Positions 3,917 through 4,061 of a DNA stretch of 64,000 nucleotides are shown here, piece by piece. A program made the translations under genes and the position numbers. Origin of the DNA: Parcubacteria group bacterium (GTDB taxonomy: Bacteria > Patescibacteriota > Minisyncoccia > Moranbacterales > UBA2206); contig JBAZYF010000001.1 of assembly GCA_041659505.1 (NCBI GenBank), positions 412,933 to 476,932 on the forward strand. The letters are read 5' to 3'. The notes below the pieces were generated by a model that was given only the letters and a program-made list of their open reading frames with translations, was not told the origin of the DNA and did not search any database. Every line of letters starts with the position of its first letter. Position 1 is the stretch's first letter.

Positions 3917-4061
3917 GGACTCGCGTGTTCACTAAAAGCAACCTTTAAGTCGCGTGGCCTCGTAGAGTGTGTTTCTATTGTTTATAGTCAATAAGACTTC
4001 TGACGGCTTTCTCGCGAACCCTGGCTATGGAAAAGCTTGCTTTTAGCGAACACATGAGTCC
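3917..4061. other. Long-range stem element of 25 bp (2 mismatches, 1 G.U) enclosing ~95 nt of GC-richer sequence; candidate structured RNA or oriC-associated structure
   Basis: GGACTCGCGTGTTCACTAAAAGCAA at 3917-3941 is complementary to TTGCTTTTAGCGAACACATGAGTCC at 4037-4061. The element lies in the otherwise AT-rich dnaA-rpmH intergenic region, and no ORF is present. Confidence 0.3.

Follow-up and report, generated by a model that had tools for sequence, protein, structure and literature searches.

Introduction

Correia elements exist both in a long form and in a short form that is internally deleted. Other intergenic repeats of ~100-170 bp that have been reviewed include the terminator-like SPRITE and also bcr1, which is transcribed and whose structure is kept by compensatory changes (PMC3184786). 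Compensatory changes are likewise common in the hairpins formed by REPINs (PMC3116915), and mutation by template switching within quasipalindromes is well established (PMC7202029). In the literature that we searched, neither palindromic repeats nor lineage-specific small RNAs have been described in CPR bacteria. The genomes of these organisms (Patescibacteria) are tiny, and to our knowledge almost nothing has been established about their non-coding repertoire or their repeat elements.

Herein we examine a 145-nucleotide element located between the dnaA and rpmH genes of a Candidatus Moranbacteria (Moraniibacteriota, CPR) genome. Coordinates refer to the window, which is the entire 64,000-nucleotide stretch of DNA that was analyzed and which is AT-rich (40% GC). 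The element has no sequence relative in Rfam, and it is nevertheless a familiar kind of object. Its long hairpin is kept paired by a Moranbacteria genus across species whose synonymous sites are saturated, and it offers a concrete candidate for a terminator or insulator, or for a small RNA, beside the most conserved gene neighborhood of bacteria.

Results

A long hairpin between dnaA and rpmH

The DnaA protein encoded in the window finds its best matches in Moranbacteria MAGs. The minus strand of the locus carries dnaA (2381-3760) and dnaN (953-2113), followed by dciA (662-943; Pfam). The plus-strand side begins with rpmH (4166-4303) and continues with rnpA (4331-4669), yidC and jag. Homologues and Pfam matches establish the identities of dnaA and rpmH, and thereby confirm the proposal from an earlier sequence-only reading that the element lies between two genes that are transcribed apart. 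The spacer separating them is 405 nucleotides long.

When the helix described in that reading was recounted position by position, nucleotides 3917-3941 (GGACTCGCGTGTTCACTAAAAGCAA) and 4037-4061 (TTGCTTTTAGCGAACACATGAGTCC) again formed 22 Watson-Crick pairs, one G.U pair and two mismatches (C3924.A4054 and A3931.C4047). An inverted-repeat search extends the arms to 30 nucleotides on the plus strand, with the 5′ arm at 3917-3946 (GGACTCGCGTGTTCACTAAAAGCAACCTTT) and the 3′ arm at 4032-4061 (AAAGCTTGCTTTTAGCGAACACATGAGTCC). These are 87% complementary, and both are further delineated by their pairing register and by covariation with the orthologues from two relatives, L109 and L097. The 85 nucleotides between the arms (3947-4031) include three junction motifs common to the orthologues, namely a 5′-terminal AAG-TCGCGTGGCC, a central TAAG and a 3′-terminal TGGCTATGGA. 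An N.C mismatch that is conserved among these hairpins has C3942 on its 5′ side, and the invariant partner, C4036, resides within a conserved AAGCTT motif. A T-rich tract (TTATTTTTAT, 4062-4071, plus strand) follows directly 3′ of the helix. A corresponding tract is present in L109 (TTAGTTTTAG), and L097 has none.

Several lines of evidence demonstrate that the hairpin is non-random. The predicted RNA fold of the element has a free energy of -58.9 kcal/mol (z = -5.7), which was equaled by none of 200 dinucleotide shuffles, and an inverted repeat of such strength appeared in only one of 500 shuffles of the 405-nucleotide spacer. The minus strand folds about as well (z = -6.2). As had been noticed from the sequence, the interior is richer in GC (46.3%; 46.2% for the whole element) than the left (28.2%) and right (23.1%) portions of the spacer. 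Internal stems that had been quoted are found within the minimum-energy fold of this single sequence, but they are weakly supported in the orthologues. The spacer is base-identical in two further assemblies of the same organism from different samples, L104 (SRR6484325) and L105 (JGI 3300014208), and therefore the element is not an assembly artefact. Direct reading of the sequences showed that a small open reading frame within the element is not conserved, as the reading frame in the window is 7 codons long and that in L109, which is unrelated, is 38 codons long.

Flanking the element are two A/T-tract anchors. The left anchor (AAAAAAGCAA, 3893-3902, no strand assigned) was recognized by spacer comparisons and is kept in relatives both with and without the element. 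The right anchor (AGGCTTTTTAA) and the rpmH promoter together span 4086-4125 on the plus strand, as defined by a promoter scan and by spacer comparisons, and are kept in all close relatives regardless of whether the element is present. This promoter is sigma-70-like (TTGACT-17-TAAACT, 4097-4125) and lies downstream of the element. The anchors at 3893-3902 and 4086-4096 may serve as UP elements of the divergent promoters, and the left anchor may be an upstream A/T tract of a dnaA promoter. A segment of the left anchor (GTGTTAAAAAAGCAA) weakly resembles the left arm of the element (GTGTTCACTAAAAGCAA), a likeness too weak to claim that the element originated by local duplication.

On the side of dnaA, a conserved upstream block carries two tandem DnaA-box-like sites on the minus strand (TTATCAACA and ATATCAACA, 3848-3867). 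These are the only two in the dnaA-rpmH spacer, reside outside the element, and are kept in the spacers of relatives. The element thus lies upstream of the rpmH promoter and, on its other side, upstream of the conserved block that contains the dnaA-proximal promoter and the DnaA boxes. A scan of both strands detected no convincing promoter directed into the element. Since it is located upstream of the rpmH promoter, the element is not within the rpmH leader. This position, together with a promoter that is kept with or without the element, rules out the regulatory leader that had been considered from sequence.

Known RNA classes and the replication origin

A scan of the window at Rfam gathering thresholds detected five tRNAs only. 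With cmscan, the region 3700-4250 at E≤10 yielded no more than two chance-level matches, to SraG (14.5 bits) and eiav_FSE (11.3 bits). The comparison with 6S, SRP and other RNA families that had been recommended as a check therefore turned up nothing at either threshold, and the lack of an Rfam match indicates that the element is not a 6S, SRP or Y-like RNA, a ribozyme or a riboswitch.

In overall shape, 6S RNA (RF00013) is comparable, as it is also non-coding, is 150-200 nucleotides long, and has its ends paired in a long helix. However, the element yields no match to the 6S covariance model, its minimum-energy fold includes no central bubble and thus lacks the bubble and terminal-loop architecture, and it is not present in all close relatives. 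It has been deleted in L093, the sister of L109, a loss incompatible with a housekeeping RNA, which argues against both 6S and SRP RNAs. We also rejected an attC site, a retron, a riboswitch and a ribozyme, based on the lack of an Rfam match, of any integrase or reverse transcriptase nearby, and on the position of the element upstream of promoters.

The origin of replication is likely to reside in the dnaA-dnaN spacer (2114-2380), which contains an AT-rich unwinding tract (2118-2165) and DnaA boxes at positions 2177, 2230, 2264 and 2367. The cumulative GC skew reaches its minimum near 2000-2200 and changes sign near 2100-2200. Relative to the rightward fork, dnaA is oriented head-on. The unwinding tract, the clustered DnaA boxes and the skew switch are all ~1.6 kb away from the element, and none is found at the element itself. 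We therefore rejected the element as a component of oriC, and the notion of an origin-associated cruciform does not survive this comparison.

A more general proposal would be that the hairpin is a DNA structural element of the origin and dnaA control region, which as a cruciform or a single-strand hairpin would absorb negative supercoils between the divergent promoters or would affect initiation. Its position between these promoters, ~50 nucleotides from two DnaA boxes, fits this proposal, as does its distance of ~1.6 kb from oriC on what would be the lagging-strand template of the rightward fork. Nonetheless, we regard such a role as highly improbable. The oriC features are all in the dnaA-dnaN spacer, and neither the sister species nor any more distant relative carries the element. 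Moreover, an interior of 85-91 nucleotides with 46% GC is known to disfavor extrusion. An 85-nucleotide spacer between the arms makes the extrusion of a cruciform unlikely.

Orthologues reside in a hypervariable gap

Closer relatives were gathered by using DnaA and RnpA homologues. The contigs returned for P0005 and P0006 were too short to use, as they extend only 67 and 51 nucleotides upstream of dnaA. Orthologous elements were found in L109 and L097, in the same gap and in the same orientation as in the window. The L109 element (808-952) is 145 nucleotides long and has 27-nucleotide arms that are 89% complementary and 91 nucleotides apart. A covariance model for which only the window and L097 served as input identified it independently, with a score of 50.3 bits (E = 4e-13). 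The element of L097 (GCA_026396175.1) is about 149 nucleotides in length (nhmmer, E = 2e-6). Among 356 kb of related loci, covariance model R1 otherwise matched only a short paralogue in the window.

The search for additional representatives was negative at larger evolutionary distances. With nhmmer, the element has no match among the dnaA loci of 80 GTDB species whose DnaA proteins are ≤72% identical, and whose spacers are 173-371 nucleotides long, demonstrating that it is not conserved at DnaA identities of 72% or below. Regular-expression and paired-core scans of ~0.96 Mb of loci revealed no further family members. A metagenome-wide search for the exact pattern ATGGAAAANCTTGCTTTTAG returned 12 contigs, mostly marine, none of which is homologous by nhmmer, and these are therefore chance matches. 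A two-sequence nhmmer profile also gave weak matches in a flippase gene at several loci (best E = 0.003), which were judged to be T-rich compositional matches.

All close relatives share the anchors AAAAAAGCAA on the dnaA side and AGGCTTTTT-ATTGAC at the rpmH -35 region. Among species with 78-92% DnaA identity, the gap between these anchors is hypervariable, ranging from 12 to 205 nucleotides. Homologous hairpin elements fill it in the window, L109 and L097. The gap is reduced to 12 nucleotides in L093, and fillers unrelated to the element are present in L101 (18 nucleotides), L099 (34), L102 (76), L106 (77), L094 (99) and L107 (205). These fillers are also unrelated to one another. The element is thus absent from seven close relatives in addition to the 80 GTDB-species loci, and the gap between the upstream regions of dnaA and rpmH tolerates any filler. 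The filler of L094 has marginal similarity to the element (z = 3.6), with its stem lost.

In another Moranbacteria species, L003, an unrelated 119-nucleotide element with a perfect 26-bp stem (AGTTTATCCCCCACCACTTTTAGTTT...; 3736-3854, corresponding to spacer positions 147-265 in the orientation of the window) fills precisely the same gap, from the dnaA-side anchor to the rpmH -35 region. Long inverted repeats also occur upstream of dnaA in L036, where the arms include a DnaA-box-like GTGGATACA, and in L069. Unrelated long inverted repeats are located upstream of dnaA in 3 or 4 of the 80 distant relatives (about 4%).

Protein trees give the topology (L094,(L097,(win,(L109,L093)))), in which L093 is the sister of L109 (95% identity in the DnaA N-terminal region). 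From this topology, the common ancestor of L097, L109 and the window already carried the element, which has recently been deleted in L093. The deletion also removed flanking bases, and so the L093 locus is not a clean empty site. The existence of a third orthologue in L109 likewise identifies L093 as a secondary deletion, which weakens the candidate explanation of a recent MITE insertion with presence/absence polymorphism. Therefore, it is well supported that the element is genus-restricted, vertically inherited and dispensable. The sequence-only reading had counted relatives that lack the stem, or that change it without compensation, together with the lack of a transcript, as evidence against a structured element. 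L093 and others indeed lack the stem, but the changes in L109 and L097 are compensatory.

Pairing is maintained while the helix sequence turns over

Neutral divergence between the window and L097 is near saturation, with identity at four-fold sites of dnaA and dnaN of only 47.5%. Within the spacer, the flanks that bear promoters share 78-84% identity between these two genomes, compared to 55% for the element. To evaluate the pattern of change, sequences from the window, L097 and L109 were aligned by fitting them to the model. The closing-stem columns are 49% identical, a neutral-like rate, versus 61.5% for the interior. Despite this turnover, 94.4% of the alignment cells are paired, and 16 of the 36 pairs have changed on both sides, including 12 of the 23 closing-stem pairs. 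None of 500 shuffles gave values as high for pairing and double changes, and sliding the partners by 1-3 columns reduces pairing to 31-57%. This covariation is derived from three sequences in a model-fitted alignment, and DNA-hairpin elements yield the same signal.

The compensatory substitutions sought in homologous spacers are therefore present in both relatives that carry the element, as is expected of structured RNAs in general. In a neutral simulation at the observed divergence, 16.4 of 30 pairs survive, with P(≥27) = 3e-5 per lineage. The closing helices actually retain 27 of 30, 28 of 31 and 28 of 32 pairs (about 90%), far above the simulated values, which argues that pairing is actively maintained. 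In L109, both arms are shortened by 2 bp.

The N.C mismatch occurs at the same position, four pairs from the inner end of the helix, in all four hairpins. Conservation of the interior is slightly above the neutral level, chiefly near the junctions with the helix (CTTYAAR-CGCGKGG and GGCTMTRGRWAAGCTT). In contrast, interior folds of the single sequences differ among species, and the consensus interior helices receive modest to weak support from L109 according to RNAalifold and pair counts. From these comparisons, the conserved features appear to be a closing helix of 27-32 bp with its N.C mismatch, a constant length and a few junction motifs. It is well supported that this pairing is constrained in single-stranded form. 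Because the helix sequence is free to vary while its pairing is kept, the element must act, or be propagated, as a single-stranded hairpin. Transition-type mismatches on the plus strand are nearly even (7 G.U versus 8 A.C). This lack of strand preference does not allow a transcribed strand to be inferred, and selection acting on the RNA of one particular strand is not demonstrated by these data.

These observations bear on the proposal that the element is an independent gene for a small structured RNA, which would be transcribed from the plus strand and would represent a new genus-restricted family. The closing helix would join the 5′ and 3′ ends in the manner of Y RNA, 6S RNA or precursors processed by RNase III, the junction motifs would be binding sites for proteins or targets, and the U-rich tract would be a terminator. 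Consistent with this possibility, the closing helix covaries at neutral-level divergence, the length (145-149 nucleotides) and orientation are constant in three species, and interior identity (61.5%) exceeds that of four-fold sites (47-54%). The element is also a GC-rich island within an AT-rich spacer, two of the three species have a U-rich tract after the helix, and of the 13 interior pairs that the other two sequences predict, L109 appears to form ~9, where the attribution of unpaired cells to L109 is inferred.

Other findings detract from this proposal, and on the whole we consider it to be unlikely, though plausible. No promoter-like site was detected upstream on either strand, there is no match in Rfam, and the element is deleted in L093 and its stem lost in L094. 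Furthermore, the interior folds differ among species, the mismatches are free of strand asymmetry, and a paralogue that lacks the whole interior occupies a terminator position. The more specific idea that this would be the first representative of a previously undescribed family of small structured RNAs confined to one Moranbacteria genus, in which the closing helix would be a recognition platform for a protein or RNase III and the junction motifs would form the functional core, seems rather unlikely to be correct. If true, the family would add to the very few lineage-specific non-coding RNAs that have been recognized among CPR bacteria.

A short paralogue and other stem-closed repeats

The paralogue in the window, which we call site 2 (11888-11960, no strand assigned), is a hairpin with 32-nucleotide arms and a 9-nucleotide loop. 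It is placed between the convergent genes 10708-11889 (plus strand, Wzy_C) and 11973-13118 (minus strand). Situated between two convergent stop codons, site 2 looks like a bidirectional terminator in its position. It has in common with the element the sequence ATGGAAAAnCTTGCTTTTAG (19 of 20 positions), CTTTAAG, the TTATTTTTAT tail and the mismatch, and the two hairpins carry the same unpaired loop-proximal bases AAG and ATGGA. The ~78-nucleotide interior of the element is missing.

None of 100 shuffles gave two matches to the 19-of-20 pattern, and site 2 was also recovered by blastn and nhmmer, by the inverted-repeat search, and by model R1 (23.5-28.7 bits, E = 1e-4 to 3e-6). This likeness suggests a small family with a long form of 145-149 nucleotides and a short form of about 70 nucleotides. 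As a single long copy and a single short copy were seen in 64 kb, the designation 'repeat family' rests on two paralogues. The outer stem of site 2 is closer to that of the L097 element than to that of the element in the window, and L097 carries a different hairpin at the site orthologous to site 2.

At least two further families of stem-closed intergenic elements are present in the same genome. One of these, family B, comprises elements of ~165 nucleotides with full copies at 6050-6210, 9301-9463, 31477-31642 and 42647-42814, and partial copies at 48015-48109 and 57167-57244. GC-rich terminal modules (ATATCCCCTTC...GGATGAGGGnAAGGGC and CCCTTGCCCTCACCTGTC...CTCTCCCGGAGGGAGAAGAGGCT) pair over ~57 nucleotides around a variable AT-rich center, and all copies are intergenic. 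Family B was found in none of the related loci, which suggests a recent, species-specific and MITE-like expansion. An additional 135-nucleotide element with a 20-bp closing stem (AACTGTCATCCTGAGCGAAG / CTTCGCTCAGGATGACAATT) occurs only once in the window (49168-49302), between the open reading frames 48124-49128 and 49304-51223.

Palindromes of other types were also noted. Ten copies of a 22-bp palindrome (AATTGTTCCACGTGGAACAATT) are distributed across 1.2 kb (55931-57159), preceded by three perfect DnaA boxes (TTATCCACA) within 60 nucleotides (55722-55783). This region lies directly downstream of three clustered tRNA genes and overlaps a mechanically called 572-amino-acid open reading frame, of which only the C-terminal third matches Wzy_C. 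Candidate explanations for these copies are an operator array, a DnaA-titrating site and a set of palindrome insertions within a gene. Elsewhere, an AT-only palindromic tract of ~100 nucleotides (TAATTTAAAATTTTAAATTTAAAATTTGAATTC...; 33344-33449) lies inside the mechanically called open reading frame 33177-33641.

A genome that harbors such elements raises the possibility that the dnaA-rpmH hairpin is a selfish or neutral DNA palindrome without host function, such as a decaying MITE- or REPIN-like insertion. Its arms would then be kept complementary by quasipalindrome template switching, by intrapalindrome conversion or by a hairpin-recognizing transposase. The hypervariable gap does accept unrelated fillers, including the L003 element with its perfect stem, and ~4% of the 80 distant relatives carry unrelated long inverted repeats upstream of dnaA. 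The expansion of other palindromic families in this genome, the equal occurrence of transition-type mismatches on both strands, and the greater proximity of the site 2 outer stem to the L097 element (as expected for subfamilies) all agree with this possibility. Precedents exist both for template switching in quasipalindromes (PMC7202029) and for compensatory changes in REPIN hairpins (PMC3116915).

However, a purely selfish or neutral origin encounters several difficulties that render it distinctly unlikely. The N.C mismatch has never been 'repaired' to a pair in four copies, the interior motifs are conserved, and vertical inheritance in three species with a single deletion fits the data better than insertion polymorphism. 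A target-site duplication is lacking, and no more than two copies were seen in 64 kb. In addition, arms that are 85-91 nucleotides apart would probably be far for template switching.

Discussion

A candidate terminator or insulator

Given the evidence above, we tentatively favor, at a little under even confidence, the explanation that the element is a dispensable member of a genus-restricted family of hairpin repeats, and that it would operate as a single-stranded hairpin to end stray transcription or to insulate against it. Stray or divergent transcription from either promoter would enter the gap between dnaA and rpmH, and the resulting RNA would form the long helix and, after it, a U-rich tract. 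This combination would then stop or insulate the transcript. The short paralogue at site 2 would perform the same task as a bidirectional terminator between convergent genes. We favor this mechanism because the paralogue is terminator-like, because a U-tract is present in two of three species, and because the element is positioned between divergent promoters.

Some characteristics of the element are not easily reconciled with this role in termination or insulation. The L097 helix has no T-tract, and a loop of 85-91 nucleotides is far above those of canonical intrinsic terminators. A terminator scan that considers loops of 3-8 nucleotides called neither the element nor site 2, and for the element this outcome follows from a loop that is outside the definition used by the scan. 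The element resides between divergent promoters with no known upstream transcription unit, while site 2 resides between convergent stop codons. Finally, the interior identity of 61.5% is above neutral, which a pure terminator or insulator would not need. The practical weight of the element is modest, as it is dispensable, is found in few species, and has a function that is only proposed.

Comparison with known repeat families

The terminal inverted repeats characteristic of classical MITEs are present, with 30-nucleotide arms that are 87% complementary. No target-site duplication was found, as the only candidate is an offset TTATGG (3910-3915 and 4068-4073) that does not abut the repeat ends, and direct repeats do not flank the elements of L097 and L109. 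Nor was a partner transposase recognized. A single copy of each form, long and short, was observed in 64 kb, the terminal sequence is not conserved between orthologues, and no clean empty site was encountered, L093 being a secondary deletion.

Closer parallels exist with ERIC, Correia/CREE, RUP and bcr1 (PMC3184786), which are similarly ~100-170 bp long, intergenic, and bounded by a long imperfect terminal inverted repeat. Unlike these, the element has no TA flanks, no target-site duplication and no sequence similarity to them, and only two paralogues were seen in 64 kb. It also differs in that an orthologous element is inherited vertically across species while the sequence of its helix is fully turned over. 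The existence of long and short forms is a further point of agreement, in this case with Correia elements.

The element resembles terminator-like hairpin repeats in its stem and U-tract and in the placement of site 2 at the position of a bidirectional terminator, but its long form has an interior of 85-91 nucleotides rather than a loop of 3-8 nucleotides, and L097 is without the U-tract. REPINs (PMC3116915) likewise consist of two inverted arms and a spacer that together produce a long hairpin in single-stranded DNA or RNA, with a spacer sequence that is less constrained than length and pairing, and with frequent compensatory changes. However, each REPIN arm is a highly conserved 16-mer that occurs in tens to hundreds of copies beside a RAYT gene, whereas the arm sequence of the element is not conserved between species and its copy number is apparently low. 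By analogy, the element appears to behave like the palindromic intergenic repeats SPRITE, ERIC and bcr1, and like REPINs. We therefore view it as an object of only modest interest that looks most like a small intergenic palindromic repeat.
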